A stretch of 64,000 bases of DNA. Origin: Syntrophales bacterium (GTDB taxonomy: Bacteria > Desulfobacterota > Syntrophia > Syntrophales > PHBD01). Location of the stretch: the NCBI GenBank assembly GCA_963668175.1, contig OY764159.1:2752001-2816000 (forward strand), written 5' to 3'. How positions within the stretch are numbered: the first letter of the stretch is position 1; each line of letters opens with the position of its first letter. Below, one piece after another: positions 8,581-22,861 of this stretch. A model generated the notes under the pieces. That model made no database searches and was not told the origin of the DNA. It saw only the letters and a list, made by a program, of their open reading frames with translations. Position numbers and translations under genes: made by a program.

Positions 8581-9660
8581 ATGTCCAGTTTTCAGGGATT
8601 CTTAAAACAATCAACGGCGAAAAATGTCACCATCTTGATGATAGATTCGTCGGACCATATCACCGGCAAGACCGGCCTGACGCTGACGACTTACCTGTCG
8701 AAGGATTGCAACACCCCTGCCACCATTACGCCGACGGTGACGGAACTTGATGCCATGAACATGAAGGGGGTTTATAAGCTGGCCCTGACGGCCGCCCACA
8801 CGGATACATTAGGAGAATTCAAGCTCATGGTTTCGGCTACGGGAGCGGACCCTGTCGATTATAAATGGCAGGTCTGCTCGTACCTTCCCGGCGAAGCAGC
8901 AACCCTGCAATCGGACCAGGCTGTCAATGTGACGAAGATCGCGGGCGCGACGGTTGATGCTAACACAGCTCAGCTCGGTGTGAACGTCGTGAACTGGAAA
9001 GGTTCGGCGGCTCAGAACATGACAGGGGATGCCTATGCAAGGCTCGGCGCACCGGCGGGGGCGTCCCTCTCTGCCGATATTGCCGCCGTCAATGCAAAGA
9101 CAACGAACCTGCCGGCCTCGCCGGCGGCCGTCGGGTCCGCGATGACTCTGCAAGCCTCCGCAGTTCAGGCCGTCTGGGATGCTTTGACAAGTGCCTTCAC
9201 AACCAGTGGAAGTATAGGCAAACGGCTGTCCGACAATGTCGATGCCCAGATATCGACGAGATCCACCTTCGCCGGCGGCGCCGTATCGAGTGTCACGGGC
9301 AACGTCGGCGGGTCCGTGAACTCCGTTAATAGCCCTGTGACGGTAGGAACAAACAATGACAAGCTGAATTACGGCTTGTCTTCCGCAGCTGTCCAGGCAG
9401 TCTGGGACGCCCTTGCATCGGCCCTGACGACGGCAGGGAGCATCGGCAAGCGCATCGCCGATTACCTGACTGGCGACGCCTATGCGCGCCTCGGTGCGCC
9501 GTCGGGCGCATCCGTAGCGGCCGATATCGCGGCCGTCAAGACCCAGACGGACAAGATGACGTTCGACGCCTCCAACAGGATTGCTTCCAACACCAAGGCC
9601 GTCAACGACGCGACGCTCGCCGGAGCCGGCACTTCCGGGAGCCCCTGGGGGCCCGCATGA
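8581..9660 (+). CDS. Phage tail-associated protein with internal repeats
   Basis: D..TGKTGLT...SK and G.Y...LT...TDTLG motifs; TGDAYARLGAP.GAS..ADIAAV and AVQAVWDAL.SA.TT.GSIGKR each occur twice. Confidence 0.7.
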   Translation: MSSFQGFLKQSTAKNVTILMIDSSDHITGKTGLTLTTYLSKDCNTPATITPTVTELDAMNMKGVYKLALTAAHTDTLGEFKLMVSATGADPVDYKWQVCSYLPGEAATLQSDQAVNVTKIAGATVDANTAQLGVNVVNWKGSAAQNMTGDAYARLGAPAGASLSADIAAVNAKTTNLPASPAAVGSAMTLQASAVQAVWDALTSAFTTSGSIGKRLSDNVDAQISTRSTFAGGAVSSVTGNVGGSVNSVNSPVTVGTNNDKLNYGLSSAAVQAVWDALASALTTAGSIGKRIADYLTGDAYARLGAPSGASVAADIAAVKTQTDKMTFDASNRIASNTKAVNDATLAGAGTSGSPWGPA

Positions 9661-9833
9661 GTATAGGCAATTCCTGGGCGGCGAACAGCTGGACGTCGGC
9701 CGCGTGGGCGGCAAACAGCTGGCAAAACTGGACCGTTGAAGCGTCGACCGCCGGCATGTACCTCATCATCGACGCGGACGGAAACGTCGAAGTCAAATAC
9801 TGCACGAAGGTGAAGCAACTCGGGACGGCATAG
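9657..9833 (+). CDS. Small Trp-rich phage protein (58 aa)
   Basis: ATGA overlap; MSIGNSWAANSWTSAAWAANSWQNW..., stop TAG 9831-9833. Confidence 0.55.
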   Translation: MSIGNSWAANSWTSAAWAANSWQNWTVEASTAGMYLIIDADGNVEVKYCTKVKQLGTA

Positions 9834-9842
9834 GAGGATGAC

Positions 9843-10085
9843 ATGCTCTGGGTAACGATATCGAAGAAATGGCACCAACCGACGATCTACACGAATCTCA
9901 CGCGGGACGACGGGATCGAGCTGTCCTTGCCCGTGGCGGACTTTGTCGAGGCCGTGCGGCGGGAGATCGGCTCGGTGACCTTCACCATGACGGAGGCCCA
10001 GTTCAAAGCAAAGATCGAGGCGGCGCGGGACATCGTGATCGAGGGCATCAAGGAGGAGTCGGTCAAGTGCGTAGGGGTGAATTGA
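9843..10085 (+). CDS. Hypothetical phage protein
   Basis: AGGAGG RBS; 80 aa; coupled to next gene. Confidence 0.65.
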   Translation: MLWVTISKKWHQPTIYTNLTRDDGIELSLPVADFVEAVRREIGSVTFTMTEAQFKAKIEAARDIVIEGIKEESVKCVGVN

Positions 10086-10513
10086 TGGACGCCCATACGA
10101 TTCCCTTCGTTCCGGACCACATCGGCGAACTCAATCTGTCGCCGGATTTTCCGTTCGAGAGCCGGAACCTGGATTTCTTCGTCAAGGCGGGACCGGCCGT
10201 AACACTCGTCGTGGACGGCCGTAAGATCGGCTGCGGCGGCGTGGCCTTTCCCTGGGACGGCATGGGCGAAGCCTGGGCCTGTTTCGATGTGGACGTCGCC
10301 AGGTATCCGCTTTGCGCGTTCAAGCTGTCCCGCAAATTTCTGGACGATGTTTTCATGGCGTGCGGCATGAGGCGGATGCAGGCCATGGTCCGGGCGGACG
10401 CGCCCCGGCACCGCCGGTTCGTCGAGCACCTGGGATTTTCGTTCGAAGGCCTTCTGCAGGCCTTCGACAAGGACGGTAACGATTTCATGATGTATGCGAG
10501 GATCAAACCATGA
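10085..10513 (+). CDS. Phage GNAT-like acetyltransferase (virion-module type)
   Basis: TGATG coupling; GG....W.G.GEAW, RR.QA.V and F.E.LGF..EG motifs. Confidence 0.8.
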   Translation: MDAHTIPFVPDHIGELNLSPDFPFESRNLDFFVKAGPAVTLVVDGRKIGCGGVAFPWDGMGEAWACFDVDVARYPLCAFKLSRKFLDDVFMACGMRRMQAMVRADAPRHRRFVEHLGFSFEGLLQAFDKDGNDFMMYARIKP

Positions 10514-11235
10514 GCGCAAGTTATGCACAGGCCGGGATGGCGCAGTTTTTCACCTCGGCGTCTTCGGCGAATCAGCAGTATACGGACTGGGAGTTGGGGG
10601 AACGCCAGCGGTACGCCTATCAACTCAAGTCACAGCTCTCCTGGCGCGAGGGCGAGATGGAGCAGCTTGCCATCAACGCCGAGAAATACCAGGCGAACGT
10701 CCAGGCGGTCCAGGCTGCGGCGGCGCAAAGCGATGCAGACGCACTGGCCGAGGCGGGACGGATGAAGGCACAGGCCCTCCAGGAAGACACGAACACGAAG
10801 GCGGCCCAGCTTTACGCCCATGCCGCCAAGTTCGGCGCGTTGACAAACAGCGGTTCGACGCTGGAGATCCTGAACGCCTTCGCCGCGAAGCGCGCCCAAA
10901 GCCTGGCGGAACAGAAATGGCAGACGGGCCAGCAGGTCTACGGTAAGAACATCGACGCCTACACAAAAGCGTCTCAGGCGGCGCTCACGCTTTACGACAC
11001 GAAGCTCAGGGAAGGCAACCTGCCCATGTACGCCTACCAGGGCGGGCTTTACATGATGGCCGGAGAGCAGGCGAAGAAAGACGCCACGGCCCGGATCGTC
11101 GCCGATCAGATTGCGGAGCTGGCGAAATCGGCCGAGATCTGGGGCAACGCCGCCGGAGGCGGCGGAAGCGGGGGCGGGGGCAGTATGGGCGGCATGACTT
11201 TTAATTTCGGCGGCAGCGGTGCTCCTAGCCAATAA
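10510..11235 (+). CDS. Internal virion (ejection) protein 1
   Basis: Ala/Gln-rich helical protein with A..A..G....GS.L motif after the GNAT gene, as in podovirus ejection modules. Confidence 0.6.
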   Translation: MSASYAQAGMAQFFTSASSANQQYTDWELGERQRYAYQLKSQLSWREGEMEQLAINAEKYQANVQAVQAAAAQSDADALAEAGRMKAQALQEDTNTKAAQLYAHAAKFGALTNSGSTLEILNAFAAKRAQSLAEQKWQTGQQVYGKNIDAYTKASQAALTLYDTKLREGNLPMYAYQGGLYMMAGEQAKKDATARIVADQIAELAKSAEIWGNAAGGGGSGGGGSMGGMTFNFGGSGAPSQ

Positions 11236-11256
11236 AGAACCATAAGGTGATATATC

Positions 11257-12948
11257 ATGCAGATCGTCATACCTGAAGAATTGACGGGATCGACGGAGTA
11301 TACGGCGGCTTCGCAGATGTCGAGATCCCTCTCCGCGATGGCGGACGTCTTCGCCAAGCAGTCGGCGCAGAGCGCCCAACGGAACCGGCAGCTGGACGAG
11401 ACCGTGGGGGTCATGCAGGACAGCAACAAAATCAACCAGACGTGTAACGATGCGGTCGCGCAATATAAGGGGATGACTTCCTATGAACGGGAACTGCGCG
11501 CGCAAAGCGGGTACGATCCGCTGGAAGACGACGCCAGACAGAAAATCGAGGAGGAGCGGGCAAAAATTACGAACCCGATCAGACTTGCTCTCTTCGATCG
11601 GGCGAGTCAAAGGGCCTTATATCAGGGGAGAGAAAAGGCCGATGCGATTATGACCGGCAAGATGAAGGTGGAGGCGCAGGGCGCATTAGACGCCTCTACG
11701 GAGTATCGGGTCGACTATACTCTTAACGGGTATCAAGAACCGAAAATCCCCTTATCCTCCGATCCCGATGCTCATCTTGAGGCCGTTGCCCGTGACAGAA
11801 GGCAATTCATGGCTAATCAGTATCGCGAACAACAGAGCTATCTGGCCGCAACCGTTGCTGGAGGGATGATCAACCAGGCCGAGGCCAAGGCACGCGACAC
11901 GTTGTTCCTAACGAACGTTGCATCGGGTCTTGCGGCCCAGGGGAGGATGACCGAAGCGGACGACTGGCTTGAAAGTAACCGTAACGCGATGACGCCGCAA
12001 AATTACGACCGTGCATACGCGAAACTTCGGCAGATACGCCAGGATGCGGACGTATCGAATCTCAAGGCGTATCTGAACGACCGTCATGTGATCAATCCGG
12101 TCGATCCCTATAATGCGGACGGAATGGAAACGTCGCCCCTGGAAAGAGCACAAGAAGCCGTTAAAGAGGCGACGTCGCCGGGTTTCGCCGAAGGGTACGG
12201 CCCCGATACGGTGAAGCGTGTGCAAGCAGCCGTGATCGGCCAATACGCCGAGCAGCGCGATCAATATAGGAACAAGCTCCCCGAAGTCCTGGGCGGGTTG
12301 TTGTCGGACGTCATGAACCGCAAGATCACCTCGGAGCAGCTGATGAACGATCATAACTTTCGGTACCTGAATTATCCTGAAAAGACTAATGTCCGCAATT
12401 TTACCGAGGCCGTCCAAAGGGCGGACGCTGCGGAAGCCGTCCAAGAAGGATCTCTGAATATGAAAGAGCGCCAGGAGATCTGGCGGAAGCAACAGAAGGA
12501 TGCGGTGAATAAAGCGGGGGAAATCAGGACCAACATTGCGCGCGGCCTCTATGCGAACCCGGCGGAAATGTTGCCCGAGTATTCCCGGTCGGACAATCCG
12601 CTCATTCTGAAACAATACCCCCAGGCGATGGCGGAATACAAACTTATTCAAGGCAATCGCGATTTGAAGGCGAATCTCGAACGCATCGCAACTGCGGCCG
12701 ACCAGGGCGTGCTCCATGCCGACGGGCCCGATCAAAACATGGCGGCGAGAGGATCGCTGCAGGACGATCTCATGGATATGTATAAGTCCGACAATACATT
12801 CCGCGGCGACAAAATGGAAAAGTGGGTCAAAGAGAAAATTCAGGAGATGGTGAAAAAGGCCGTGGGACAGTTGCTGGACAGGCAATTCCCCCTGATACCG
12901 GTTGTGAAAGCGTCCGAGGAACAGGGCGGCATAAAAGGCGGCGTGTAA
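11257..12948 (+). CDS. Internal virion (ejection) protein 2
   Basis: 563 aa helical protein; position between ejection protein 1 and tail fibre. Confidence 0.6.
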   Translation: MQIVIPEELTGSTEYTAASQMSRSLSAMADVFAKQSAQSAQRNRQLDETVGVMQDSNKINQTCNDAVAQYKGMTSYERELRAQSGYDPLEDDARQKIEEERAKITNPIRLALFDRASQRALYQGREKADAIMTGKMKVEAQGALDASTEYRVDYTLNGYQEPKIPLSSDPDAHLEAVARDRRQFMANQYREQQSYLAATVAGGMINQAEAKARDTLFLTNVASGLAAQGRMTEADDWLESNRNAMTPQNYDRAYAKLRQIRQDADVSNLKAYLNDRHVINPVDPYNADGMETSPLERAQEAVKEATSPGFAEGYGPDTVKRVQAAVIGQYAEQRDQYRNKLPEVLGGLLSDVMNRKITSEQLMNDHNFRYLNYPEKTNVRNFTEAVQRADAAEAVQEGSLNMKERQEIWRKQQKDAVNKAGEIRTNIARGLYANPAEMLPEYSRSDNPLILKQYPQAMAEYKLIQGNRDLKANLERIATAADQGVLHADGPDQNMAARGSLQDDLMDMYKSDNTFRGDKMEKWVKEKIQEMVKKAVGQLLDRQFPLIPVVKASEEQGGIKGGV

Positions 12949-13044
12949 GCATCCTGCGGTTTTTACCGCGCCGCATTGCATGGTCGTACGGATGGCGCAC
13001 AGGAACAAGGCATGGAATCGGCCAATGGCGGACAGGTGAATGAG

Positions 13045-14700
13045 ATGGCATACGAAAGCGAAACAGGATCGATCCCGGAGAGTGCCGACGGATACATGCC
13101 GACGGGACCGCATGACAACCTGAAATATGCTCCTGCGGTTTTTTACACAGAGCCGGGAAAAGACGGTCGGAATGAACCCTCGGGGACCGATGCGTTAACC
13201 GCCTGGTTAAGAAACGCCGTATTTATCCATGGTGTCGATGACAAAATGGAAGAAGTCGCGATGCAAAACGCCGTCGCCTGGTCCAGAATGCTCAACATTC
13301 CCGCCTCCGTCGCCTATGAGTATGGACCGGATATATCGAAGATGATCCGGAGTCGGGCGGATTCAAACAACTTCGTCACGGATTCGGGTATTGCCGACCC
13401 TCGGATCGTTATGGAGGACGAAAGGAAGAAAGACGAAACCGGCCGGTTCTACGGCATGGACGGGATGAATGCGGCCGACGCGATCGCCGGCGGATCGCCT
13501 CCGCAACAACCGGAAGGCAGGAATCCGTTCCGGAATATCTATGAGGCCAAGCGAAGGTCCCGTGCGGAATTGACCTACGAAGAACTTCAGGCGCGCCTGG
13601 CCTCCGACTGGATGCGTGAGGGAATGAGCAAGGAAGCCGCGATGGCCGAGGCATACGGCCATACGTCGGCGCAGACGGAAGCCTACGACCCGTTCACATT
13701 GTTTGCCGGGGGATTGGGCGCAGGCTATCGCCTGGGAAACACGGCGGCGAGCGTGGGCGAGCGGCTGTTCAGGGCGGGCGTGCAGTCGGCCGTCATGACG
13801 GCGGCGGATATCCCGATCAGCGGGATGATCACCCCCGCCATCGAGGAGAAGTATCCCGGCCTGGCCCTTCCGGCGAATCTCATCCTCAGCGTCATATCGG
13901 GCATCTCCATCGAGAAGGGCGCGGAGAAAGGCCTGATCAAGCTACTCGAAAGCAAAGGCATTAAAAACGCCGGGGCGGCAGCCGCGGAGATAAAAGCGGG
14001 TCTTGCCGAAAAGGCCGGAAGCGGGGAATTGGGGACGATGCTCGACAAGGCCATCGAGGCACGCGGCGGTGCGGCGGATAAGATCAGACCGCCGGCAACC
14101 GATATGAATGCGGCCGGTCCCGCCGAAGGCGTCAAGGCGGAAGGGGTGACGAGCAAACCAATTAATGGTTCATTTGTCAAAACAGAGAATCTACCAAAGA
14201 ACACGATCGTTGGAGACGAAAAAGCGATTGGCGCTTTGGTTGACTTCACCCTCGAAGATAAGACGAATGTGAAACGTGCGGTGCGATTTCAAACTGTGAC
14301 GCCTGAAGAGGCGGCAAGTCTCAAAGAACGGACAAGTCTCGAATTGGAAGGATATCATCACACGATAGATAATTATGGGATCAAGCACGTGCTGGAGCAA
14401 CATGGCGATCTGATTTCAGAGGGGCATCGTGGCCAATTGCCGATTGAAAGGAGCGATATCCAGATGATTCCGGAGATTGTCAATAACTATGATTCTGTGA
14501 AGTTGATTCCAAAAGGATCGAAAGGCGATGCTAGTCCTGCATTAGACCTTATAAGATACGAAAAAAGGATTGATGGATCCGTCTATTATGTCGAGGAGAT
14601 TAGGACCGGCCGGAATGAACTGACAACAAAATCCTTATGGAAGACGCGCGCCGCGAAAGATTCCAAGCCTGATGGCTCGAACCCTTTCTCTACGCCCTAA
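13045..14700 (+). CDS. Ejection/polyvalent-type protein with C-terminal PBECR3-like nuclease domain (start uncertain; ORF open from 12976)
   Basis: C-terminus H.ID...IKH....HG....E..RGQ.PI...DI..IP.IV..YD...Y.K..DG..YYVEE.R.....L..KS.W resembles the phage BECR-fold PBECR3 domain. Confidence 0.7.
   Translation: MAYESETGSIPESADGYMPTGPHDNLKYAPAVFYTEPGKDGRNEPSGTDALTAWLRNAVFIHGVDDKMEEVAMQNAVAWSRMLNIPASVAYEYGPDISKMIRSRADSNNFVTDSGIADPRIVMEDERKKDETGRFYGMDGMNAADAIAGGSPPQQPEGRNPFRNIYEAKRRSRAELTYEELQARLASDWMREGMSKEAAMAEAYGHTSAQTEAYDPFTLFAGGLGAGYRLGNTAASVGERLFRAGVQSAVMTAADIPISGMITPAIEEKYPGLALPANLILSVISGISIEKGAEKGLIKLLESKGIKNAGAAAAEIKAGLAEKAGSGELGTMLDKAIEARGGAADKIRPPATDMNAAGPAEGVKAEGVTSKPINGSFVKTENLPKNTIVGDEKAIGALVDFTLEDKTNVKRAVRFQTVTPEEAASLKERTSLELEGYHHTIDNYGIKHVLEQHGDLISEGHRGQLPIERSDIQMIPEIVNNYDSVKLIPKGSKGDASPALDLIRYEKRIDGSVYYVEEIRTGRNELTTKSLWKTRAAKDSKPDGSNPFSTP
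13565..14142 (+). repeat. 578-bp direct repeat, copy 1 (shared core of the two ejection-type genes)
   Basis: Near-identical to 15300-15877; both copies end at GTCAAGGCGGAA, where the sequences diverge. Confidence 0.95.
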
Positions 14701-14733
14701 ACGACGGACGGCAATCCCCATAAGGACGTAATT

Positions 14734-14762
14734 ATTATATCTCCTGCCGTCAAAGATGTCAA
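14734..14762 (-). promoter_or_regulatory. Antisense sigma70-type promoter TTGACA-17-TATAAT
   Basis: + strand ATTATA 14734-14739 and TGTCAA 14757-14762, 17-nt spacer. Confidence 0.7.
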
Positions 14763-14824
14763 GGAGAATGGAGCCGAAGTGAATGAAAATAAGGATTAAA
14801 TTGTGGACTACCAGGCCGCTGTGA

Positions 14825-14925
14825 CACGGCGCCGTGATTGGGGTGGCTGTAAAAGAAAAAAGCGAAGAAGGCAAAGTGTTCCGAACCGTTTACGATTGGG
14901 GCGATGTGAGTAGGAAAGTGAAGAG
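14825..14925 (+). pseudogene. Orphan 3' remnant of the LPD3-like tip
   Basis: Encodes V.VKE..EEGKVFRTVYDW.DVS.KVK, homologous to the end of 15062..16495. Confidence 0.75.
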
Positions 14926-15007
14926 AACCCCCCCGCTGGTTCATCTTCCAGCCAACCGGTTTATGGGGTGGGCGGGGCACCCTGGGGTTTCCCGATTGAC
15001 TGACGAT

Positions 15008-15036
15008 ATTTTACACGAATAATTCGGTGATGTCAA
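15008..15036 (-). promoter_or_regulatory. Antisense sigma70-type promoter TTGACA-17-TAAAAT
   Basis: ATTTTA 15008-15013 and TGTCAA 15031-15036. Confidence 0.6.
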
Positions 15037-15061
15037 GTGATATTAGACGGTTATACGTTAT

Positions 15062-16495
15062 GTGACGACAGATGTGATCCAAGAGAATTTTACGACGGCA
15101 CTGCAAAAAATCCGGCAATCGTGCGAATCGATGCCTAATCACGGAAATAAAAGTATGACCGTGTCAGCCGTAAACCATCTGATGAGATATAATGGCGCCT
15201 CCGTCCCGGGGCTGATCGCCGGCGGATCGTACCCGCCGCAACCACTGGAAGGCAACAATCCGTACCGTAATATCTATGAGGCAAACCGAAGACCCCTGTC
15301 GGAATTGACCTACGAAGAACTTCAGGCGCGCCTGGCCTCCGACTGGATGCGTGAGGGAATGAGCAAGGAAGCCGCGATGGCCGAGGCATACGGCCATACG
15401 TCGGCGCAGACGGAAGCCTACGACCCGTTCACATTGTTTGCCGGGGGATTGGGCGCAGGCTATCGCCTGGGAAATACGGCAGCGAGCGTAGGCGAGCGGC
15501 TGTTCAGGGCGGGCGTGCAGTCGGCCGTCATGACGGCGGCGGATATCCCGATCAGCGGGATGATCACCCCCGCCATCGAGGAGAAGTATCCCGGCCTGGC
15601 CCTTCCGGCGAATCTCATCCTCAGCGTCATATCGGGCGTCTCCATCGAGAAGGGCGCGGAGAAAGGCCTGATCAAGCTACTCGAAAGCAAAGGCATTAAA
15701 AACGCCGGGGCGGCAGCCGCGGAGATAAAAGCGGGTCTTGCCGAAAAGGCCGGAAGCGGGGAATTAGGACCGACGCTCGACAAGGCCATCGAGGCACGCG
15801 GCGGTGCGGGGGAGAAGATCAAACCGCCGGCAACCGATATGAATGCGGCCGGTCCCGCCGAAGGCGTCAAGGCGGAAAGTCAACTCGGCGACAGTGCCGC
15901 ATCTGCCGTGGAGAAAGAAGAAGCCGCCGCGGCCAATGCGTGGGCTGTGGAAAGATCGCCTTCGATCTCCACCGAGAAAATCGACGGCGTCAACGTCATC
16001 CAGAGCAGCAAAGAGAGCAGAATCGGCAGGGCCTACGATATTGTCATGCAATACCTGCCCCGTCCCGTAAAAAATCTCTTCGACGCGAAAACGACGGATG
16101 TCGAAACGGCCATAGAAAAAGGCGAAAAATTCTACCGAGGGGAATTGATGAACGCTCCCGTGAAAGCACCCGCCTTCGACGGCGATAATGTGAATTTCAC
16201 GATGAGTGGATTCCTGCATGTTTCGGCTCAGGATGGACGTGTATTGAAAACGGAAGATATTACAAGACGGATTAACCTTTTGCCGAAAGCGAAGGAGGTT
16301 CTGACAAATACGCCTTGCGTTGATGAAATGAGAATATGGCCCAATGGAGATAGAACATATGGGTTGCTCGGCCGCTTTGATGACGGCTCCGTAATCAGGG
16401 TTGTCGTAAAGGAGACAAAGCAAGAGGGCAAGGTATTCCGAACAGTTTACGATTGGAGCGACGTGAGCGACAAAGTGAAGAAATCAGGAATATGA
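15062..16495 (+). CDS. Paralogous ejection/polyvalent-type protein with C-terminal LPD3-like (BECR-fold) domain (start uncertain)
   Basis: Same core as 13045..14700; distinct tip V..PAF.G..V.FT..G..H.....R......RR..LLP.A..VL...Y.L.G......I.VVV.E......F.TVY. Confidence 0.65.
   Translation: MTTDVIQENFTTALQKIRQSCESMPNHGNKSMTVSAVNHLMRYNGASVPGLIAGGSYPPQPLEGNNPYRNIYEANRRPLSELTYEELQARLASDWMREGMSKEAAMAEAYGHTSAQTEAYDPFTLFAGGLGAGYRLGNTAASVGERLFRAGVQSAVMTAADIPISGMITPAIEEKYPGLALPANLILSVISGVSIEKGAEKGLIKLLESKGIKNAGAAAAEIKAGLAEKAGSGELGPTLDKAIEARGGAGEKIKPPATDMNAAGPAEGVKAESQLGDSAASAVEKEEAAAANAWAVERSPSISTEKIDGVNVIQSSKESRIGRAYDIVMQYLPRPVKNLFDAKTTDVETAIEKGEKFYRGELMNAPVKAPAFDGDNVNFTMSGFLHVSAQDGRVLKTEDITRRINLLPKAKEVLTNTPCVDEMRIWPNGDRTYGLLGRFDDGSVIRVVVKETKQEGKVFRTVYDWSDVSDKVKKSGI
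15300..15877 (+). repeat. 578-bp direct repeat, copy 2
   Basis: Near-identical to 13565-14142. Confidence 0.95.
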
Positions 16496-16581
16496 AGAGA
16501 ACCCCCCCGCTGGTTCATCTTCGAGCCAACCGGTTCATGGGGTGGGCGGGGCACCCTAGGGGATCCCGATTGACTGATTAT

Positions 16582-16610
16582 ATTTTACACGAATAATTCG
16601 GAGATGTCAA
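16582..16610 (-). promoter_or_regulatory. Antisense sigma70-type promoter TTGACA-17-TAAAAT
   Basis: ATTTTA 16582-16587 and TGTCAA 16605-16610. Confidence 0.6.
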
Positions 16611-16700
16611 GTGATATTCGATGGTTATACGTTATATGACGATGGATGCGATTCAAAAGATTTTGATGATGGCACTGCAAGAAATCAAGGAAAATAAAAC

Positions 16701-17000
16701 ATGACCGTATCGGCCGTAAATCATCCGATGAAATGCAACGGCAACGCCGTTCCGTGGCCGATCGCCGGCGGAACGTTTCTGCCGGAGCGGGAAGGCGGGA
16801 ACAGCCCGGTACTCGACCTCATCTCGAAAGAAAGAAGGATTGATGGATCTGTCTATCGCATCGAAAAAGTGAGGGCAGGACGGAACGATCTGATAAAAAA
16901 TCCTTATGGAGGCCGCGCGCCGCGTAAGATTCCAAGCCTGATGGCTAGAACCCTTTCTCGACGCCCGAAGCGACGGACGGCAATCCCCATAAGGACGATC
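16701..17000 (+). pseudogene. Internally deleted third cassette: 5' part like 15155-15230 fused to a decayed PBECR3 3' end
   Basis: MTVSAVNH.M..NG..VP..IAGG matches the 15062 gene; ~16812-16997 aligns with ~14542-14728 (RIDGSVY) with a frameshift. Confidence 0.75.
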
Positions 17001-17002
17001 AT

Positions 17003-17031
17003 ATGGTATCGCCTGCAATAAACGGTGTCAA
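17003..17031 (-). promoter_or_regulatory. Antisense sigma70-type promoter TTGACA-17-TACCAT
   Basis: ATGGTA 17003-17008 and TGTCAA 17026-17031. Confidence 0.45.
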
Positions 17032-17102
17032 GCCGAAGGGACCCTGCCCGCGTCGCAGGACGACGCAAAAAATAGATTAGAACGATACGAACAGGAGAGT
17101 AA

Positions 17103-19145
17103 ATGACAGTAGAGACCACAGACAATCGCATTTCCCATGTCGGCGACGGATCGACGATCCAGTTCGCCTTTCCCTTCGGCATTTTCGGCACGGACGATAT
17201 CGTCGTCTATCTGGCAACGGCGGGAGGTTCGAAGGTTCTGCAACAAAGGGGCGTCGACTACGACGTAACCCTTACGAACCCGGACGACCTGCCGTCGCCC
17301 GGCGTGATCACGTTCTGCCAGCTACCGGCGCCTGTGCCGCCGACTCCGCAACAGACCGTGAAGATCGTAAGGACGCTCCCCTACACGCAGGAGATCGAAA
17401 TCACGAACGGCGGGCCGATGCCGGCCGCATCCCTGAACGAAGCCTTCGACCGGGCCGTGATCCTCATGCAGCAGCTCCAGGACCAGCTACGCCAGGCGAC
17501 CATGTCGCTGGGCGAGATCGTGGCTTCGGACTTCTTCAAGCTCCTGGCGGTTTCCGGTAATGCAACGGCCGCAAGGGCGCTCCTTCAAGCCCAGCAACTG
17601 AACAATAACCTGACGGCCCTCTCGGGCCTAAGCGGCGCGGCGAACCTGCTTCCGTACTTCACCGGGACGGGAACGATGACGACGACTCCCCTGTCGTCCT
17701 TCGCCCGTGGCCTTCTTGACGACCAAAGCCCCGCGGCAGCCAGAACAACCCTTCAAGTCGACAATTCCGGAGGCGTGACCTGGAAGCAGCTCGCGTCCGG
17801 GACGGATTTTCAGACGACCTGCCCCACGGCCTCGACCATTACGATGAGCAGCGACCAGACGGCAAACATCAAATTCGGGACGCTCATCAAAGTCAAGATA
17901 AGCGGCGGGTATTATGTGGGCCAGTGCGTGACATGCACGGCCGTTCTCCTCACGGTGTCGGGGGTGGCCCTCAGCACGGGGAGCAACGCTCTACAGGAAC
18001 TCTACTACACGTCGTTTTCGGACATGGAGAGGGACATCCAGCAGGTCACGAAAAGATATTACGCGGCCGACGGTTCCGGGGTCGACACCGTAACGGCGAC
18101 ATTGGACCCGCCTCCTCCGGCCCTGGTGGACAAGATGCATTGCCGGATCGTGGCGGCCGGTAAGAATACGGGGGCGATGACATTCGAGCCCAACGCCCTT
18201 GGGCGGAAAGACATTGTCAAGCTGAACAATGTTCCGATGGCGGAGGGCGACATACCCGGCCAGTATTTCGTCATGGACCTGCAATACAGTTCCGCCCTGG
18301 ATAAATGGGTCATCCTGAACGCCGGCGTTCCCAATGGCGTGATCTCCCAGTCGAAACTTAAGACATCAAGTGAGACTGCCGGTACATTGTCCATCATTTC
18401 GGGCGGCACGGTTGAAAGTAGCTATACGCTGCCGGGGGGCGAGTATGGGTTCATGCCATCGTTTCGTTGTTGGACGAATGAATCCGGGAGATGGCCGGTG
18501 AATTTATATTCGGGGCTTCTTCAGGATTATGACGGCTACACTCTCGGAAATACAAACAAGAACGTGATATACATGAAATTCACCGGCGGTACGATTGCGG
18601 GAACGAGCTGGTTCCAGTGCAACCAAAGATATGTGACGTCCTCCGGCGAAGTTCCCTGGTTCTTTGCCCTTCGCGACAAAACAACAAAGTTCGTCAAGGC
18701 GGCAGTCTTTTCGCTCGATCATCCATGCTTCGGCAACGGCGGCAAGCCTGCTCTCGTTCCTCATCCCTTCCAGACGCCGAAAGACGACGAGGAAATTATC
18801 GTCGTTCACCCGACACCCGAGCAAATAGCTGCGGCGGAGGATTACTCCGTCCGGGGCGATGACGAAGCGGACTATTCTGTGTTGAGATCCCTCCTTGAAT
18901 TGTACGATATTGACGAAGACTCCAAACCGTCCTGGCCGGATGTTCCCGTCACCGTAGGCATCACAAAAGTATTGAGTCCGCAGGGGCGCATGGTCAAGGC
19001 CAATGCGGATAATTTAAAGGCGGTCCCCGAAAACACTCCTATCGAGGTTATAAAGAAGGTCATCCCGCAGACTGAAGGTTTGATCTGCAGGGCCTTCAAG
19101 GCGAAGGAAACGAAAACCGCCAAGGAGGACGCCGTCCATGGATGA
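17103..19145 (+). CDS. Tail fibre protein
   Basis: T7 gp17-like anchor MTV......GDGST..F.FPF.I....DI.V...DY.V...V.I.R..P.TQ...DR.....Q; LPYFTG......LS.FAR.LLDD shaft repeat. Confidence 0.85.
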   Translation: MTVETTDNRISHVGDGSTIQFAFPFGIFGTDDIVVYLATAGGSKVLQQRGVDYDVTLTNPDDLPSPGVITFCQLPAPVPPTPQQTVKIVRTLPYTQEIEITNGGPMPAASLNEAFDRAVILMQQLQDQLRQATMSLGEIVASDFFKLLAVSGNATAARALLQAQQLNNNLTALSGLSGAANLLPYFTGTGTMTTTPLSSFARGLLDDQSPAAARTTLQVDNSGGVTWKQLASGTDFQTTCPTASTITMSSDQTANIKFGTLIKVKISGGYYVGQCVTCTAVLLTVSGVALSTGSNALQELYYTSFSDMERDIQQVTKRYYAADGSGVDTVTATLDPPPPALVDKMHCRIVAAGKNTGAMTFEPNALGRKDIVKLNNVPMAEGDIPGQYFVMDLQYSSALDKWVILNAGVPNGVISQSKLKTSSETAGTLSIISGGTVESSYTLPGGEYGFMPSFRCWTNESGRWPVNLYSGLLQDYDGYTLGNTNKNVIYMKFTGGTIAGTSWFQCNQRYVTSSGEVPWFFALRDKTTKFVKAAVFSLDHPCFGNGGKPALVPHPFQTPKDDEEIIVVHPTPEQIAAAEDYSVRGDDEADYSVLRSLLELYDIDEDSKPSWPDVPVTVGITKVLSPQGRMVKANADNLKAVPENTPIEVIKKVIPQTEGLICRAFKAKETKTAKEDAVHG

Positions 19146-19449
19146 GATCAAGGTAACCTGGAACCTCGTGCTGTCGGGCCTGATGTTCCCCCTGCTCATT
19201 TACATGGTCAATAAGTTGGGGAAGGACGCGGCGGCCCGGAGCGCCGAGATGAAGAACCAGATCGCCGAGGTGACCGCGTGCGTCAACAAGATCAAGGTGG
19301 CCATGGCGGGCAAGCTGGACCGCGAGGAACACGACAACCGGTGCGAGGAAAGACTGAACGACCTCTGGGACCGCGTCCATTTCCATAGCCACAAGGGGCT
19401 CAAGGACGAAGAGGGAGAAGTCGTCATCACCGCAGGAGGGAGAAGATAA
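19138..19449 (+). CDS. Membrane-anchored coiled-coil protein of the lysis cassette (holin-like)
   Basis: One N-terminal TM helix plus coiled coil, directly before the endolysin. Confidence 0.55.
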   Translation: MDEIKVTWNLVLSGLMFPLLIYMVNKLGKDAAARSAEMKNQIAEVTACVNKIKVAMAGKLDREEHDNRCEERLNDLWDRVHFHSHKGLKDEEGEVVITAGGRR

Positions 19450-19889
19450 TGAGACCGAGGAAAAAGAAAACGGCGGAAGCCGCCGCCGAAGGCATGAGGC
19501 CCGTCAACGGGCTGGTTGTCCACTGTTCCGCAACGCCGAACGGCAAGGAATACCACGCCGCCGACATCGACCGCTGGCACAAGGCGCGGGGCTGGAACGG
19601 CATCGGCTATCATTTCGTGGTCGCCCTCGACGGCTCCGTCGAGGCGGGCCGGCCGGTGGAAGAGATCGGCGCCCACGTCGAAGGCCACAACCAGGACAGC
19701 ATAGGCATCTGCCTCATCGGGACGGACGAGTTCAATTCGCTGCAGCATGTGGCCCTGGCGCGGCTGCTGGCCGATCTCAAGAAACGGTTTCCGGCCGCCG
19801 ACATATGCGGCCACCGGGATTTCCCCGATGTCCAAAAACTGTGTCCCGGCTTCGACGTCAGGACGTGGTGCAGGGATTACGGCCTATGA
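19449..19889 (+). CDS. Endolysin, N-acetylmuramoyl-L-alanine amidase (T7 lysozyme-like)
   Basis: VHCSAT, WH..RGW..IGYH, GAHV.GHN..SIGICL.G, GHRD and K.CP.FDV motifs. Confidence 0.92.
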   Translation: MRPRKKKTAEAAAEGMRPVNGLVVHCSATPNGKEYHAADIDRWHKARGWNGIGYHFVVALDGSVEAGRPVEEIGAHVEGHNQDSIGICLIGTDEFNSLQHVALARLLADLKKRFPAADICGHRDFPDVQKLCPGFDVRTWCRDYGL

Positions 19890-20437
19890 TCGACCGTTAC
19901 GACGAATGCAGAGACCGCATGCGCACGGGCGACATTCTGCTCTGGCACAGCAATTCGCTCCTCGGCGCGCTGATCCGGATGAAGACGGGCGGCGACGAGA
20001 ACCACGCCTCCATGATCATCCGCCTCCAGGAGTACGAGGGCAGGGAGCAGCGGCGGTACCACACGGAGGCCATGGAAAACGGCGTCTGCCCGAACCTCCT
20101 GTCCGTCCGGGTGAAGGGCTTCGACGGCAGGGTCTGGTGGCTGCCGCTGAAAGAAGAATACGAAGGGAGGCGCGCCGAGATCGGCGCCAGGCTGACGGAG
20201 GTCTGGGGCAGGCCCTACGACTACGGCTCGCTCTTCTGGCAGATCGTCGGGAAGGTCTCCGTCGAGACGCGGCGGATGTTCTGCTCGGAGGTCATCGACT
20301 ACGCCATGGGGCACACGGGCGAAGCGGCCAACCCCCACGAGCTTTTGAGCCGGGGATACCATAAGGACCAAATCCTGATCTGGGAGAACATGGTCCCTGC
20401 AACTTACAACATTCCAAAGGGGACATCGGAGGTGTGA
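19886..20437 (+). CDS. Permuted papain-like NlpC/P60 (YiiX/YaeF-like) protein
   Basis: GDILL...H.....EA.....G.PYDY....FCSE.I order with His before Cys. Confidence 0.7.
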   Translation: MIDRYDECRDRMRTGDILLWHSNSLLGALIRMKTGGDENHASMIIRLQEYEGREQRRYHTEAMENGVCPNLLSVRVKGFDGRVWWLPLKEEYEGRRAEIGARLTEVWGRPYDYGSLFWQIVGKVSVETRRMFCSEVIDYAMGHTGEAANPHELLSRGYHKDQILIWENMVPATYNIPKGTSEV

Positions 20438-20438
20438 A

Positions 20439-20852
20439 ATGAAAAAGAAGATTCTGCTGCTGGTTTCGGCGCTCCTTGTCCTTGCGGGATGCGCCGGCAT
20501 CCAGGTATCGACGACGCCGTCTGCGGACGTATCGATTGCCTACAAACACGGCAGGGCCATCGGGGCCGGTCTGGCCCTGGCGTATCCGGACCAGGTCGCG
20601 GCCGCGCTGCCCTACGTCCGGGGGCTTTACGCCGTGGCGAAGGACGGCACGATCACGGACGCCCAGGTGGCGAAGGCCCTGGCCCTGGTAGCGGAGAAGC
20701 TCGGCGGGAACGCCGCGCTCAAGGCGTCCATCGCCGTCGTGACGTCGGAAATCGGCCTTACGGTCAAAACGGGGACAGTGAACCCGAATCTCGTCGACGC
20801 CCTGCAGGGGGCCATCGACGGGATCTCCGCCTTCAAGGAGGTCAAGACATGA
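20439..20852 (+). CDS. Phage lipoprotein (possible spanin-like)
   Basis: MKKK signal with LAGC lipobox, within the lysis cassette. Confidence 0.65.
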   Translation: MKKKILLLVSALLVLAGCAGIQVSTTPSADVSIAYKHGRAIGAGLALAYPDQVAAALPYVRGLYAVAKDGTITDAQVAKALALVAEKLGGNAALKASIAVVTSEIGLTVKTGTVNPNLVDALQGAIDGISAFKEVKT

Positions 20853-21025
20853 AGAACTGGAAAACGACGCTGGCGGGCTGTGTCTCCGCCGCCATCTATG
20901 CCGTCATCGCCGCCGTGCAGGCGGGAAGGATCGACCCGAAGGACCTGGCCGTCGCCGGGGGGCTTGCGGCCCTCGGCATCCTGGCGAAGGACCTGAACGT
21001 CACGGGAGGTTCCGTATCCCAGTAA
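20849..21025 (+). CDS. Small two-TM holin-like protein
   Basis: MKNWKTTLAG...LG..AKD.NVTGG pattern of small phage holins; AGGAGG RBS, ATGA overlap. Confidence 0.7.
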   Translation: MKNWKTTLAGCVSAAIYAVIAAVQAGRIDPKDLAVAGGLAALGILAKDLNVTGGSVSQ

Positions 21026-21262
21026 ACCGGACACTGTAACTGCATCATCGATAGCCGCCCCTCCCGCACCGACGGGAACGGGGGCATGTCGGGGGCGTCC
21101 CGCCGGAAGCCGGAAACGGGCGGCGGAACGATACGGGGAGCTTTGCGCCCCGCCCTGGGACAAAAGAAGAAAACCTGCAACCAATGGAGCCCGCCGGGAA
21201 TCCGGCCTTAACCCACCAAACCGTTCGCTCCGATGGAGACGATAGAGTCAAGGGAGGATGTC

Positions 21263-21757
21263 ATGAAGAAGACGGCAATAGGCATTGCGATACTGTTAAC
21301 CTTTATCACGGCCGGTGTGTGCATGGCGCAGGGACAAGTCACGGTCGGCGCGCCGCAGCAGATCCTTGTGGACCAGTCGAGCTGCGCGGGACACGCCGCG
21401 GACAATATCAAAAAGACGATCACGATCAGTTGGAGGGGGGATTTGGCCGACGGGACGATTCCCGCGACGCCGATCCCGAGCACGGGCGTCCTGGGCTGGT
21501 ATCTCTATACGGTCGAGACCGTTCCGGGAAGCACGGCGCCTACCAGCGGATACGGCATCACGATCAAGAACAGCCACGGCATCGACCTGATGGACGGAAA
21601 CCTGGCGAACCGCAGCGCGTCGGCGGCGCAGCTGGTGAACGCGGGGGCGGGCGCATTCGGGTATCCCCTCGTCATGGGCGACCTGACCTTCGCGATCACG
21701 GGAAACTCTGTGCAGAACAGCACGGGGACCGTCATCTTAACCTTTTTGCCCGAATGA
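21263..21757 (+). CDS. Secreted hypothetical protein
   Basis: GGAGG RBS; Sec signal peptide MKKTAIG...CMA. Confidence 0.7.
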   Translation: MKKTAIGIAILLTFITAGVCMAQGQVTVGAPQQILVDQSSCAGHAADNIKKTITISWRGDLADGTIPATPIPSTGVLGWYLYTVETVPGSTAPTSGYGITIKNSHGIDLMDGNLANRSASAAQLVNAGAGAFGYPLVMGDLTFAITGNSVQNSTGTVILTFLPE

Positions 21758-21769
21758 CGGAGGTGCGCC

Positions 21770-22861
21770 ATGAAAAAAAGAATCTCGATCTGTCTGGCTT
21801 TGATTATCATGTTCGCGGCGACGGCTTACGCCCTGCCGCCGCTTCCCCGCGAGGCCTCCGGAACGGACAGCCGCCTGACGAGCTGTTCCGCCTCCGGCAT
21901 GGGCCCCCTCTGGGACGGCACCATCTTTGCCTGCACGTCCGGCACCGGCTTCGGGTATTATAACGCAGGCGTCCTCAGTTACCTGACCGGCGCATCGGCC
22001 CGTTCGGCGATGGGGCTTGCCATCGGCACGGACGTCCAGGCCTATTCGGCCAATCTCGCAACCTACGCGGCTATCGCGCCCTCGGCGAACGTCCAGACGC
22101 TATTGGGCTCCGCGAATTATGCGGCGTTCAGGACATCGCTGGGAGTCGTTCCGGGAACAGACGTCCAGGCTTACAGTTCGCTCCTGAATGCGCTTTCCGG
22201 CCTCACGCCCGACGCGGGCAAACCCATCGTCGGCAACGGCTCGACCTTCGTCATGGCCGCAAACGCCCTGACGACAGATAACGCCACAGCCAATCACTTG
22301 CTCAAGAAAGACGGTTCCGGCTATGTGGCGAACGCGACGGCGGGGACGGACTATCCCGGCCTTACGTCCTCGAACACGTTTACCGGCGCAAACCAGATCG
22401 GCGATACGTCGAGCAACAATCTCCAGAAGGTCATCCTGAAGAAAGCCACATCCATGGCAAACGGCGACTGGCAGGGGACGGCCATCCTCGGCACGGCCGG
22501 TGAAGCCCTCAGCCAGGGCGATGTTGTCTACAAGAAATACAACAACTCGGCCTGGAAATATTACAAATACAACGCGGGCGGGACCGATAAGCTGATCATC
22601 CCCTCCGGAATCGCGACGGCCGCGATTGCATCGGGATCGGACGGCGTCATTCTGGTTCAAGGCGTCATGCGCTACGATTCGTGGTCCTCGTTGTCCTACA
22701 CTGCCGATGCCGCCGTGACCGTTTATGCTTCCACGACCGCCGGTGCCCCCGCGACGACTGTGCCTGCGAATTCCGGCAATGAGGTCGTCGTTGTCGGCGT
22801 CCTGGTCGGTACAAACACCATCGAAACGATGTTCGGCGCCACCTGGGTGGAGGTGAAATGA
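21770..22861 (+). CDS. Secreted protein with tail-fibre-like repeats and a cement-like C-terminus
   Basis: Signal peptide (AYA); GLAIGTDVQAY and G..PGTDVQAY repeats; AGE.LS.GDVVY...GIA..AIA.G..G.IL..G motif. Confidence 0.65.
   Translation: MKKRISICLALIIMFAATAYALPPLPREASGTDSRLTSCSASGMGPLWDGTIFACTSGTGFGYYNAGVLSYLTGASARSAMGLAIGTDVQAYSANLATYAAIAPSANVQTLLGSANYAAFRTSLGVVPGTDVQAYSSLLNALSGLTPDAGKPIVGNGSTFVMAANALTTDNATANHLLKKDGSGYVANATAGTDYPGLTSSNTFTGANQIGDTSSNNLQKVILKKATSMANGDWQGTAILGTAGEALSQGDVVYKKYNNSAWKYYKYNAGGTDKLIIPSGIATAAIASGSDGVILVQGVMRYDSWSSLSYTADAAVTVYASTTAGAPATTVPANSGNEVVVVGVLVGTNTIETMFGATWVEVK

Follow-up and report, generated by a model that had tools for sequence, protein, structure and literature searches.

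The OOP RNA of phage lambda is a short structured countertranscript. It has its own promoter within a phage operon, is complementary to the cII coding sequence at its 3' end, and ends in a stem and a U run. In type I toxin-antitoxin pairs, which are often found in prophages, a constitutive antisense RNA lies opposite a harmful gene; the two genes converge and their 3' ends overlap. The pairs txpA/RatA and bsrG/SR4 are prophage examples with such a 3' overlap. In type III systems, such as ToxIN, an RNA neutralises an endoribonuclease; this RNA consists of tandem repeats, is encoded upstream of the toxin on the same strand, and is cut by the toxin. The polymorphic toxins CdiA and Rhs have a constant front and exchangeable C-terminal tips, with leftover tips downstream and a protein immunity gene behind each tip. 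SymE/SymR is described as a type I pair with a cis-antisense RNA in the accessible part of PMC1891008, and the MuF toxins of temperate phages as polymorphic toxins in that of PMC5576092. According to the available portion of Iyer et al. 2017 (PMC5512222), the polyvalent proteins show strong mosaicism and are presumed to be cleaved into separate units, and the PBECR domains are predicted RNases. In the same portion, the terms 'antisense', 'small RNA', 'promoter' and 'immunity protein' have 0 occurrences each, and an RNA gene in the linker is not described. Nothing on the antisense RNA design considered below (A and B types) was found in the literature searched.

The locus belongs to a Syntrophales bacterium (contig OY764159.1, positions 2,752,001 to 2,816,000; this whole stretch of 64,000 nucleotides is called the window, and all coordinates refer to it). 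Gene A (13012–14700, plus strand, 562 aa) is flanked by an internal-virion-protein-like gene and a tail fibre gene. It starts with a unique N-terminal part, continues with the hydrophobic middle part S, which it shares with gene B, and ends in the PBECR3 tip. Gene B (15155–16495, plus strand, 446 aa) is composed of a short N2 start, the shared part S, and the LPD3-like tip B. Part S is 94% identical between the two genes, and the tips differ. Two leftover tips are present. Remnant B' (14826–14924, plus strand) is the last part of the tip-B domain, and its stop codon has been lost via a 17-nt deletion. Remnant A' (16701–17021, plus strand) is an N2 start fused to the end of the tip-A domain, with a frameshift from a 1-nt deletion. 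The tail fibre gene (17103–19145, plus strand), with 17 PHROG tail and tail-fibre families, is the downstream bound of the cassette array.

The initial annotation described the tips as nucleases. This is shown only for tip A, whose Pfam profile match to PBECR3 (PF18812), at about 14302–14664, reaches 74.2 bits (cut-off 30, E 1e-20). Tip B scores 13.8 bits for LPD3 (PF18798), which stays under the cut-off of 27 (E 0.067). The nearest clusters of tip B in the ESM Atlas are LPD3 clusters (0.86), which is a lead only, and its AlphaFold2 model is too poor to use (pLDDT 47). As PBECR3 and LPD3-like modules, the tips correspond to those of the PBECR/LPD polyvalent proteins in the available text of PMC5512222; their genes lie among virion genes, and the proteins are presumably injected. 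The layout is that of polymorphic toxins: a constant front, variable C-terminal tips, and the leftover tips B' and A'. Unlike in polymorphic toxins, no protein immunity gene was found with Pfam and PADLOC. None of the nine mechanical ORFs between and opposite the tips reaches a Pfam cut-off, and 0 of 7 proteins match PADLOC. As far as tested, therefore, there is indeed no protein immunity gene in sight.

Four minus-strand sites of the form TTGACA-17-TAnnnT had been reported in this array, and all of them are found in the sequence. The A-type site (14762–14734) is TTGACA-17-TATAAT with a predicted start at ~14727. The B'-type site (15036–15008) and the B-type site (16610–16582) are both TTGACA-17-TAAAAT, with predicted starts at ~15001 and ~16575. 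The A'-type site (17031–17003) is TTGACA-17-TACCAT with a predicted start at ~16996. In this order, they match 12, 11, 11, and 10 of the 12 positions of the sigma-70 hexamers, with 17-nt spacers throughout. Each site lies just behind an intact or remnant tip and points back to it, as had been stated. In a consensus scan of 9000–22000, they are the four best of 13 sites, while shuffled sequences contain 5.5 ± 2.3 sites. The window contains eight matches to the exact pattern TTGACA-N17-TANNNT where 0.16 would be expected, a number not attained in any of 100 shuffles. The other four matches in the window each precede a same-strand ORF by 71–130 nt. Genome-wide, the pattern has 161 matches, 118 of which are outside the ORFs of a crude ORF map. 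Among these 118, 79 are within 300 nt upstream of an ORF start; the matches inside ORFs are 25 sense and 18 antisense. This placement relative to the crude ORF map indicates that the pattern mostly marks real promoters in this organism.

There are only two independent elements among the four sites, the A type and the B type, each present twice. The two A copies (14628–14775 and 16897–17044) are 84% alike, and the two B copies (B', 14912–15112, and B, 16486–16686) are 89% alike. The claim that the remnants preserve exactly the tip end plus the promoter is nearly right: the homology of A' spans ~14544 to ~14775 and ends ~10 nt past the -35 hexamer.

The spacers of the A type and the B type had been regarded as unrelated. 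This is not the case. As the alignments indicate, both elements are relics of one conserved linker, which in phage polyvalent proteins lies behind modules of the PBECR3 and LPD3-like kinds. Behind gene A, the relic of this inter-domain linker (14701–14796, plus strand) continues in frame past the TAA stop codon and reads TTDGNPHKDVIIISPAVKDVKENG... The TAA corresponds to a Glu codon in all four homologues, whose alignment continues in frame beyond it, and remnant A' has GAA where gene A has TAA. The relatives of the tip proteins are mosaics of 850–3299 aa. At the peptide level, the hexamers fall on a pattern of the linker in which a hydrophobic pair is followed, after six residues, by V-K/N. 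Of 12 tip-B homologues for which only the protein is known, 9 show it as well. The 17-nt geometry common to the A and B types is thus explained by their origin from one linker. Part of the conservation of the hexamers could act on the protein, since they overlap the peptide pattern.

When PBECR3 loci are surveyed for the same downstream motif, the A-type site is kept at the same place. A minus-strand promoter-like site lies 125–155 nt after the E..GR motif of PBECR3 in 10 of 11 loci, against a background of 0.093 per stretch, the stretch of +125 to +155 having been chosen after seeing the data and the anchors of L019–L021 having been set by eye. Examples are TTGACA-17-TATATT with TG in L013, TTGACT-17-GATAAT in L014, and TTGCCA-17-TATATT in L016; the new locus L143 has TTGACA-17-TAAGTT. 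In Rhizobium phage RHph_N28_2 (L020), the site TTGATG-17-TATATT is located behind the stop codon, and the element falls between genes. L015 and L022 are without a -35 hexamer. At the sequence level, the A-type RNA element is shared by phages of several bacterial phyla.

The Ile codon under the -10 hexamer is the rare ATA in six of eight loci (P about 3e-4 given the local codon usage). When synonymous codons are shuffled, the combined P is 9e-6, a value driven by L016 because ATA is absent from the usage sample of this locus; the other single-locus values are weak (P 0.02–0.34). Such a choice of codons suggests that selection acts on the DNA as such. The hexamers are also intact in DNA that is no longer translated, that is, in the gene A relic, A', B, and B'.

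The predicted A-type antisense RNA (14625–14727, minus strand) is ~100 nt long and would consist of a closing stem around two hairpins, followed by a U-rich tail. It would overlap ~75 nt of the coding end of tip A (14625–14700), corresponding to the last ~25 codons. The predicted A'-type antisense RNA (16894–16996, minus strand) is 93% identical to the A copy. The folding energies are -45.3 kcal/mol for A (z -4.1) and -50.5 kcal/mol for A' (z -4.8). The consensus fold of eight sequences from seven loci contains 20 pairs, 11 of which show compensatory changes. In it, 91.9% of the cells are paired, compared with 79.5 ± 1.8 in shuffles, and 0 of 500 shuffles reach this value; here the structure was derived from the same alignment that was used for counting pairs, and the alignment includes two paralogues and one sequence obtained with a DNA pattern that spans part of the fold. 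In the window, the outer stem is formed by TCCTTATGG/CCATAAGGA; its counterparts are TCGCTGTGG/CCACAGCGA in L014 and ATGTGGAAGA/TCTTCCACAT in L016. Read on the minus strand, the stems contain 30 G.U cells and one A.C cell. The consensus energy of the minus strand (-14.4) is below that of the plus strand (-4.2), and each of the eight sequences likewise has its lower energy on the minus strand. The z-scores favour the plus strand in L018, L022, and L143. At the 3' end, the closing stem is followed by AUUUUGUUGU or AUUUUUUAU. The terminator scanner is silent here because the loop is long, and the U run is poor in L014, L015, and L022.

The model R1 was built from the A-type structure. It scores 91 bits for the A copy and 89.8 bits for the A' copy, which are its only matches in the whole genome of the window. 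It also found L143, which was unused in building, on the expected strand and at the expected place (43.7 bits, E 8e-11). L013, L019, and L021 are undetected by R1, and L020 scores only 8.9 bits (E 4.5). The last loose DNA pattern has at least 114 matches, and none of the 80 loci returned matches R1. The distant solo PBECR-like genes L144–L146 have no clear element. In the search for DNA of relatives, the patterns P0001 and P0002 and the alignment A1 have no match in viral contigs, and P0001 has none in metagenome contigs. The match L023 was obtained by chance with the DNA pattern that also gave the true locus L022, and was dropped. In Rfam, 12500–17500 on both strands gives a single chance match to a snoRNA at E up to 5 (20.5 bits against a gathering cut-off of 40).

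The linker could be kept for reasons other than an RNA. It might be maintained for the protein as a module processing site, or as a DNA joint for shuffling, and the hexamers and the hairpin would then be incidental, with no functional RNA. The positions of the hexamers are conserved positions of the linker, and the A-type site lies in former coding sequence, as this explanation expects. It also agrees with the mosaic and presumably cut nature of polyvalent proteins in the available text of PMC5512222, and with the locus itself, which is a cassette mosaic, other tips being present in the same sample. However, the compensatory changes alter the peptide of one arm, from PHKD to PQRI to LPHD, and the excess of G.U over A.C on the minus strand and the rare ATA codon also argue against an incidental origin. 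The best hexamers (12 and 11 of 12) are exactly those in untranslated DNA, and the pattern mostly marks promoters in this genome. We consider this explanation unlikely.

The four sites are read here as promoters of small antisense RNA genes. These genes would lie in the linker downstream of the effector modules that phages inject as parts of polyvalent or ejection proteins. The probability of this reading is put at roughly 0.55. In the case of the A type, the comparison among loci speaks for a genuine antisense RNA gene, and the RNA is probably a built-in regulator of the tip. Transcription, the RNA ends, and the regulatory action are what we infer beyond this. On this reading, the cassettes of the prophage were each cut off just behind the module, so that the linker and the RNA gene are now untranslated DNA behind the tips. 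The sigma-70 RNA polymerase of the host would start at the four predicted positions, and RNAs of roughly 75–100 nt would run back over the 3' end of the tip coding sequence. Most likely, such an RNA would pair with the tip mRNA and lower or time its expression, as in lambda OOP or a 3'-overlapping type I antitoxin RNA. A harmful RNase tip, for example, may thereby be kept off during lysogeny. The remnants would each serve as a second source of the same RNA.

Similar to OOP, the predicted A RNA is short and structured, has its own promoter-like site, and would be antisense to the 3' end of a coding sequence. OOP targets the regulator gene cII and belongs to one phage group, whereas the predicted RNA gene here lies in, or is a relic of, the linker behind effector modules, in phages of several phyla. 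Similar to type I pairs, the predicted RNA is opposite to the tip gene, and the two would converge with a 3' overlap. Typically, a type I toxin is a small membrane-active peptide that has a small gene to itself and whose synthesis is repressed by the RNA, whereas here a predicted RNase module ends a virion protein of 446–562 aa.

The RNA could instead act on the protein. As an antitoxin or a decoy, it would bind the RNase tip or be its preferred substrate and neutralise it in the producer, and the remnants would be orphan RNA immunity against the tips of related phages. The lack of a protein immunity candidate in the Pfam and PADLOC searches is in line with this, as are the co-occurrence of the RNA with the module across phyla and the prediction of PBECR domains as RNases in the accessible part of PMC5512222. 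The RNA body is also the best-kept part of both remnants. Between A and A', 95 of 102 positions of the RNA body are identical, and 56 of 81 in the adjoining tip remnant. Between B' and B, the identity is 80 of 87 in the RNA body versus 66 of 86 beside it (92% in the core and 77–82% in the flanks). The higher identity of the RNA bodies could also stem from gene conversion. Cis-antisense action is nevertheless the simpler reading, as the RNA is fully complementary to the mRNA of its own tip. The -10 hexamer of A' is weakened to TACCAT, and PBECR modules of injected proteins may need no immunity. Nor is the type III arrangement seen: there are no tandem repeat families in 12500–17500, and the element is antisense and downstream of the toxin-like module, so that a type III repeat antitoxin was set aside. 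Neutralisation of the tip protein by the RNA is quite improbable.

The B type is less clear. The predicted transcripts of B' (14915–15001, minus strand) and B (16489–16575, minus strand) have terminator-like hairpins at 14942–14925 and 16516–16499, the latter abutting the stop codon of tip B. The scanner called a hairpin with a T-rich tail here. The folds are no better than shuffles (z -0.2 for B' and -0.8 for B), and conserved secondary structure on the antisense strand was found for the A type only. The predicted B RNA reaches only the region of the stop codon, unless the weak terminator is read through. The DNA relatives of the B type number one (L024), with a weak site of 7/12. The B-type DNA pattern has 0 matches in viral contigs. 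Two matches to it in metagenome contigs, L010 and L011, are a near-identical promoter before an HTH (XRE-like) gene and not homologous loci. Tip B has no match by tblastn among phages and plasmids, and none besides the one in the window among 400 further genomes of the phylum; P0007 has no match among plasmids. The initial annotation proposed that each tip is controlled by a cis-encoded small RNA. For the A type, the RNA gene is supported by the conserved site, the ATA codon, the covariation, and the remnant identity. For the B type, the case is weaker: the hexamers are kept, and there is no supported fold.

A plus-strand promoter-like site, TTGACT-16-AATAAT (14996–15023, 10/12), overlaps the B'-type site, and its twin is at 16570–16597. 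In both copies, it is aimed at the N2 start ~125 nt away. The B-type element alone could accordingly be a promoter or operator of the next cassette gene (N2-S-tip), with the minus-strand match as a by-product of a partly symmetrical AT-rich region, and the insignificant fold of the B type would fit this. In a variant contig, however, the plus-strand -10 hexamer is altered at 15018 and 15019; the minus-strand hexamers of B' are unchanged there, while 6 of 17 spacer positions differ. The minus-strand site is also the stronger one (11/12), and the B-type element goes back to the linker from which the A type derives. A role as the promoter of the next gene is distinctly doubtful.

Action of the hairpin in the plus-strand mRNA, as a processing, stabiliser, or pause site at the module boundary with an irrelevant minus-strand promoter, is most improbable, since against the plus-strand folds that beat shuffles in several loci (z -3.8 in L014 and -3.9 in L016) and the better plus-strand score of L143 stand the weaker plus-strand consensus energy, the 30 cells that become C.A mismatches on that strand, and the conserved -10 and -35 hexamers, which would be left unexplained.

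Several other candidates were rejected. A small protein from the minus-strand RNA does not fit, as the 28-aa ORF of A/A' shrinks to 6–13 aa in L014, L016, and L017. No tRNA was found that would make this a tRNA-like site. For a diversity-generating retroelement, there is no reverse transcriptase among the genes scanned, and for an integron attC site, there are no core sites; in both cases, the stem lies inside coding sequence in relatives. A pilE-like G-quadruplex recombination signal was set aside because the G runs are codons of the linker motif GVG(K/G)AP and the G-rich strand is the template of the predicted RNA.

Going beyond the reading of the sites as antisense promoters, it can be speculated that each polyvalent effector module travels with an antisense RNA gene in its linker as a mobile cassette of toxin and RNA antidote. 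Module and RNA would shuffle together, and lysogens would retain decayed tips for their still active RNA, which could be a spare off-switch or confer immunity to the injected tips of related phages. We regard this extension as rather unlikely. In this prophage, the elements are untranslated DNA and can be mutated without touching any protein, which makes the reading of the sites as RNA genes open to a direct test.

RNase-like modules are part of the polyvalent proteins that phages inject. If the RNAs are made, a conserved small RNA gene lying backwards in a coding linker would represent a new class of phage regulatory RNA. It would offer a possible answer to how these modules are tolerated by the producer or the lysogen without a protein immunity gene, and the retention of decayed tips would be explained.

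The prophage occupies the first ~25 kb of the window, and every gene is on the plus strand. The genes include capsid (PF19821), tail protein (phrog_376), an internal-virion-protein-like gene, tail fibre (17103–19145, plus strand, in the prophage gene scan) and amidase. The cassette array separates the internal-protein genes from the tail fibre. Gene A (13012–14700, plus strand) begins with a unique part, continues with the hydrophobic middle part S that it shares with gene B, and ends in a PBECR3 tip (tip A, 74 bits). By sequence comparison, gene B (15155–16495, plus strand) has part S between a short N2 start and tip B. Remnant B', between genes A and B, corresponds to the terminal portion of a tip-B domain, and remnant A', downstream of gene B, is a frameshifted fusion of the N2 start to the terminal portion of tip A. 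Tip B is only LPD3-like, since its Pfam score of 13.8 bits is under the cut-off and its ESM Atlas value of 0.86 to LPD3 clusters is a lead only. It has 40 representative relatives, many within proteins of 1000–3299 aa. The copies of part S (13482–14150 and 15214–15890) share 94% identity over 300 nt. Part S is predicted to encode glycine-rich hydrophobic stretches, as expected for a membrane-inserting ejection protein.

A short reading frame is seen ahead of the N2 start in two copies (15062–15154 and 16636–16704), distinguished by a 28-nt deletion. The first starts at GTG 15062 and is fused in frame to gene B. The second is separate and encodes 22 aa, and its TGA overlaps the ATG of the N2 start.

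The initial annotation reported four minus-strand promoter-like sites behind the tips, and all of them were found: TTGACA-17-TATAAT at A (14762..14734), TTGACA-17-TAAAAT at both B' (15036..15008) and B (16610..16582), and TTGACA-17-TACCAT at A' (17031..17003), as read from the sequence. They are the top four among 13 promoter-like sites in 9000–22000 (shuffles: 5.5 +/- 2.3). The exact pattern TTGACA-17-TAnnnT occurs 8 times in the window versus 0.16 expected, and the remaining four matches are each 71–130 nt upstream of a same-strand ORF. The whole 4.57-Mb genome contains 161 matches. Classed against a crude 3733-ORF map, which takes in 88% of the DNA, 118 of them are outside ORFs (79 of these at most 300 nt upstream of an ORF start), and 25 sense and 18 antisense matches are inside. 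The 118 matches outside ORFs indicate that the pattern is mostly a real promoter signal in this organism. Only two elements are independent: the likeness is 84% between A and A' and 89% between B' and B.

The TAA of gene A (14698–14700) corresponds to Glu in all four relatives of tip A (P0005–P0008), and the alignment to these proteins continues in frame through the following 32 codons (14701–14796), TTDGNPHKDVIIISPAVKDVKENG... Remnant A' has GAA at the position of this TAA. The Glu and the in-frame alignment indicate that the A-type site is within the relic of a linker following PBECR3 in larger polyvalent proteins. Gene A looks recently truncated from a longer multi-module protein. The A-type -10 is over two codons (I-I), and the -35 is six codons on, over the V-K codons and the last base of the preceding codon. 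Relatives of tip B carry a similar linker, ...LPESS..GVGKAPS..NI-x6-V[K/N], with V-[K/N] six residues past the hydrophobic pair in 9 of 12. The B-type spacer is a frameshifted relic of it (HGVGGAP*, then D(Y)ILHE*FGDVK* in another frame), and shares a 17-mer at 16/17 positions with its sole DNA relative, L024. The A-type and B-type spacers were originally considered unrelated. The alignments to homologues and the 17-mer of L024 contradict this: both derive from related linkers, and thus there was no convergence on the 17-nt spacing.

Four G tracts, GGGGTGGGCGGGGCACCCT(A)GGGG, are present on the plus strand at 14966–14988 and 16540–16563. The run is ~13 nt from the predicted B-type start (15001 or 16575) and corresponds to codons of the linker motif GVG(K/G)AP. 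It is 16/17 identical to the distant L024, which is unusually high for 41% protein identity.

The initial annotation also proposed a survey of PBECR/LPD3 genes for the same downstream motif. A minus-strand promoter-like site is seen at a like position, 125–155 nt past the PBECR3 E..GR motif, in 10 of 11 loci (background 0.093 per stretch), where the stretch was picked after the data were seen, three anchors were placed by eye, and the loci are kin. The minus-strand sites are TTGACA-17-TATATT with TG in a genome of the same order (L013), TTGACT-17-GATAAT in an IMG/VR contig (L014), TTGCCA-17-TATATT in a Desulfopila MAG (L016), TTGCTC-17-TATAGT in a Methylococcales MAG (L017), TTGCTT-16-TATATT with TG in a proteobacterial MAG (L018), TTGAAA-16-TACTAT in Burkholderia phage phiE131 (L019), and TTGATG-17-TATATT in Rhizobium phage RHph_N28_2 (L020). 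L015 has TATACT preceded by TG without a -35, and L022 has TAGAAT only. The residues over the -35 vary by locus (V-K, G-K, S-N, A-T), and the bases CAA are constant. The rare Ile codon ATA is beneath the -10 in 6 of 8 loci (P about 3e-4, from local usage with pseudocounts). Synonymous-codon shuffles gave single-locus P values of 0.02–0.34, and below 5e-5 for L016, which dominates the combined P of 9e-6. In L020, the element is behind the stop codon, in an intergenic stretch.

From its predicted start (~14727 at A and 16996 at A'), the A-type minus strand is predicted to fold into a closing stem enclosing two hairpins, followed by a U-rich tail. A folds at -45.3 kcal/mol (z -4.1) and A' at -50.5 (z -4.8), against -28.1 and -33.8 on the plus strand. 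The outer stem varies on both sides: TCCTTATGG/CCATAAGGA in the window, TCGCTGTGG/CCACAGCGA in L014, ATGTGGAAGA/TCTTCCACAT in L016, and GTGGCGG/CCGCCAC in L015. Between loci, the stem changes are accompanied by changes in the peptide encoded on one arm. In an alignment of 8 sequences from 7 loci, including a paralogue and one pattern-fetched sequence, RNAalifold gave 20 pairs, 11 with compensatory changes. Paired cells reach 91.9%, versus 79.5 +/- 1.8 in shuffles (0/500 reach 91.9%) and 28–53% with slid partners, figures flattered because the structure was counted on the alignment it was derived from. Thirty cells are G.U on the minus strand, equivalent to C.A on the plus strand, and the reverse is seen in only 1 cell. 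The minus strand gives a consensus energy of -14.4 and the plus strand one of -4.2; without the paralogue and the pattern-fetched sequence, the values are -13.8 and -0.3. The minus strand has the lower energy in all 8 sequences; by z-score it is favoured in 5, with one tie and the plus strand favoured in 2.

As a prospective check, a covariance-type model, R1, was built from the A-type alignment before 400 further genomes of the phylum were searched with PF18812. The search gave one new strong match, L143. R1 matches it at full length, on the expected strand and at the expected place (43.7 bits, E 8e-11), and TTGACA-17-TAAGTT is also at the expected place. The fold of L143 itself is no better than shuffles. 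R1 did not match the distant loci L013, L019 and L021 and gave only 8.9 bits for L020, and the solo PBECR-like genes L144–L146 have no clear element.

Both B-type copies retain the hexamers. A variant contig of run X3 has 14 listed differences in 14963–15039, none in the 12 hexamer positions and 6 in the 17-nt spacer, and alters the -10 of an overlapping plus-strand promoter-like site. Since the hexamers would be spared by chance about 1 time in 7 (an estimate), this contig is at most compatible with selection. In both copies, a hairpin resembling a terminator, with a T-rich tail, is ~60 nt downstream of the site, and L024 has a hairpin and a seven-U run at the corresponding place. The folds of the window copies and L024 are no better than shuffles, and the L024 site matches the promoter consensus at only 7/12.

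Two unrelated metagenome contigs, L010 (1497–1525, minus) and L011 (1223–1251, plus), contain a promoter with ends nearly identical to the B type, TTGACATCC...CGTGTAAAAT. A GAGGAGG ribosome site and an HTH (XRE-like) gene follow 13 nt after it, so a B-type-like sequence occupies a classical promoter position elsewhere. Variant cassettes at 15771–16660 are found in contigs of runs X1 and X3, from the sample holding this genome. In one, part S is followed by 832 different letters in place of the 543 of tip B, and the sequence then rejoins the window at the last 75 nt of the tip and the B-type spacer. A further one is a diverged form of tip B. These cassettes suggest that the tips are polymorphic in the population.

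Between A and A', the predicted RNA body is identical at 95/102 positions, the adjoining tip remnant at 56/81, the promoter stretch at 23/35 (-35: 6/6; -10: 4/6), and the sequence beyond the -35 at 17/38. Between B' and B, the values are 80/87 for the body, 32/35 for the promoter, 66/86 for the tip remnant, and 66/84 for the N2 start. The frameshift of A' is at the edge of the RNA body, and thus its best-kept part has ceased to be translated in frame. This fits selection on an RNA unit, and also a gene-conversion tract.

A small protein from the minus strand was rejected because its small ORF is not conserved, and a type III-like antitoxin because there are no tandem repeats of that kind. The elements match no Rfam family, and the tRNA search found none. 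The ORFs between and opposite the tips have no match at the Pfam cut-off or in PADLOC, in agreement with the original remark that no protein immunity gene is near the tips. The word "antisense" is absent from the available portion of the BECR preprint (10.64898/2026.08.28.747851), and "antisense", "small RNA", "promoter" and "immunity protein" from that of Iyer et al. 2017 (PMC5512222). Literature on antisense RNA, prophage, internal virion protein and nuclease gave nothing on such an RNA among the best matches listed.

An RNA antidote directed at the tip protein, with the remnants as orphan immunity, is possible but unsupported. On the best reading, each element is a gene for a small antisense RNA, carried in the linker that follows an effector module of an injected phage protein; here these genes would be stranded, in DNA that is not translated, behind both intact and decayed tips. 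The cis-encoded small RNA originally proposed for every tip is, as a candidate gene, well supported by comparison for the A type (conserved site, covarying minus-strand fold, and L143); for the B type it is plausible, with its fold unsupported. We infer that the predicted RNAs are transcribed and functional, and their most likely action would be to control the tip by an antisense mechanism like that of OOP or of type I systems.

In RHph_N28_2 (record 7320–7826), PBECR3 stands alone as a gene of 119 aa, flanked by the portal and major head genes. Behind its stop codon, an in-frame relic of the same linker (LTPEA...SI) can be read, and the minus-strand site is intergenic. As an isolated phage, RHph_N28_2 is a cultured system where the predicted RNA could be sought.
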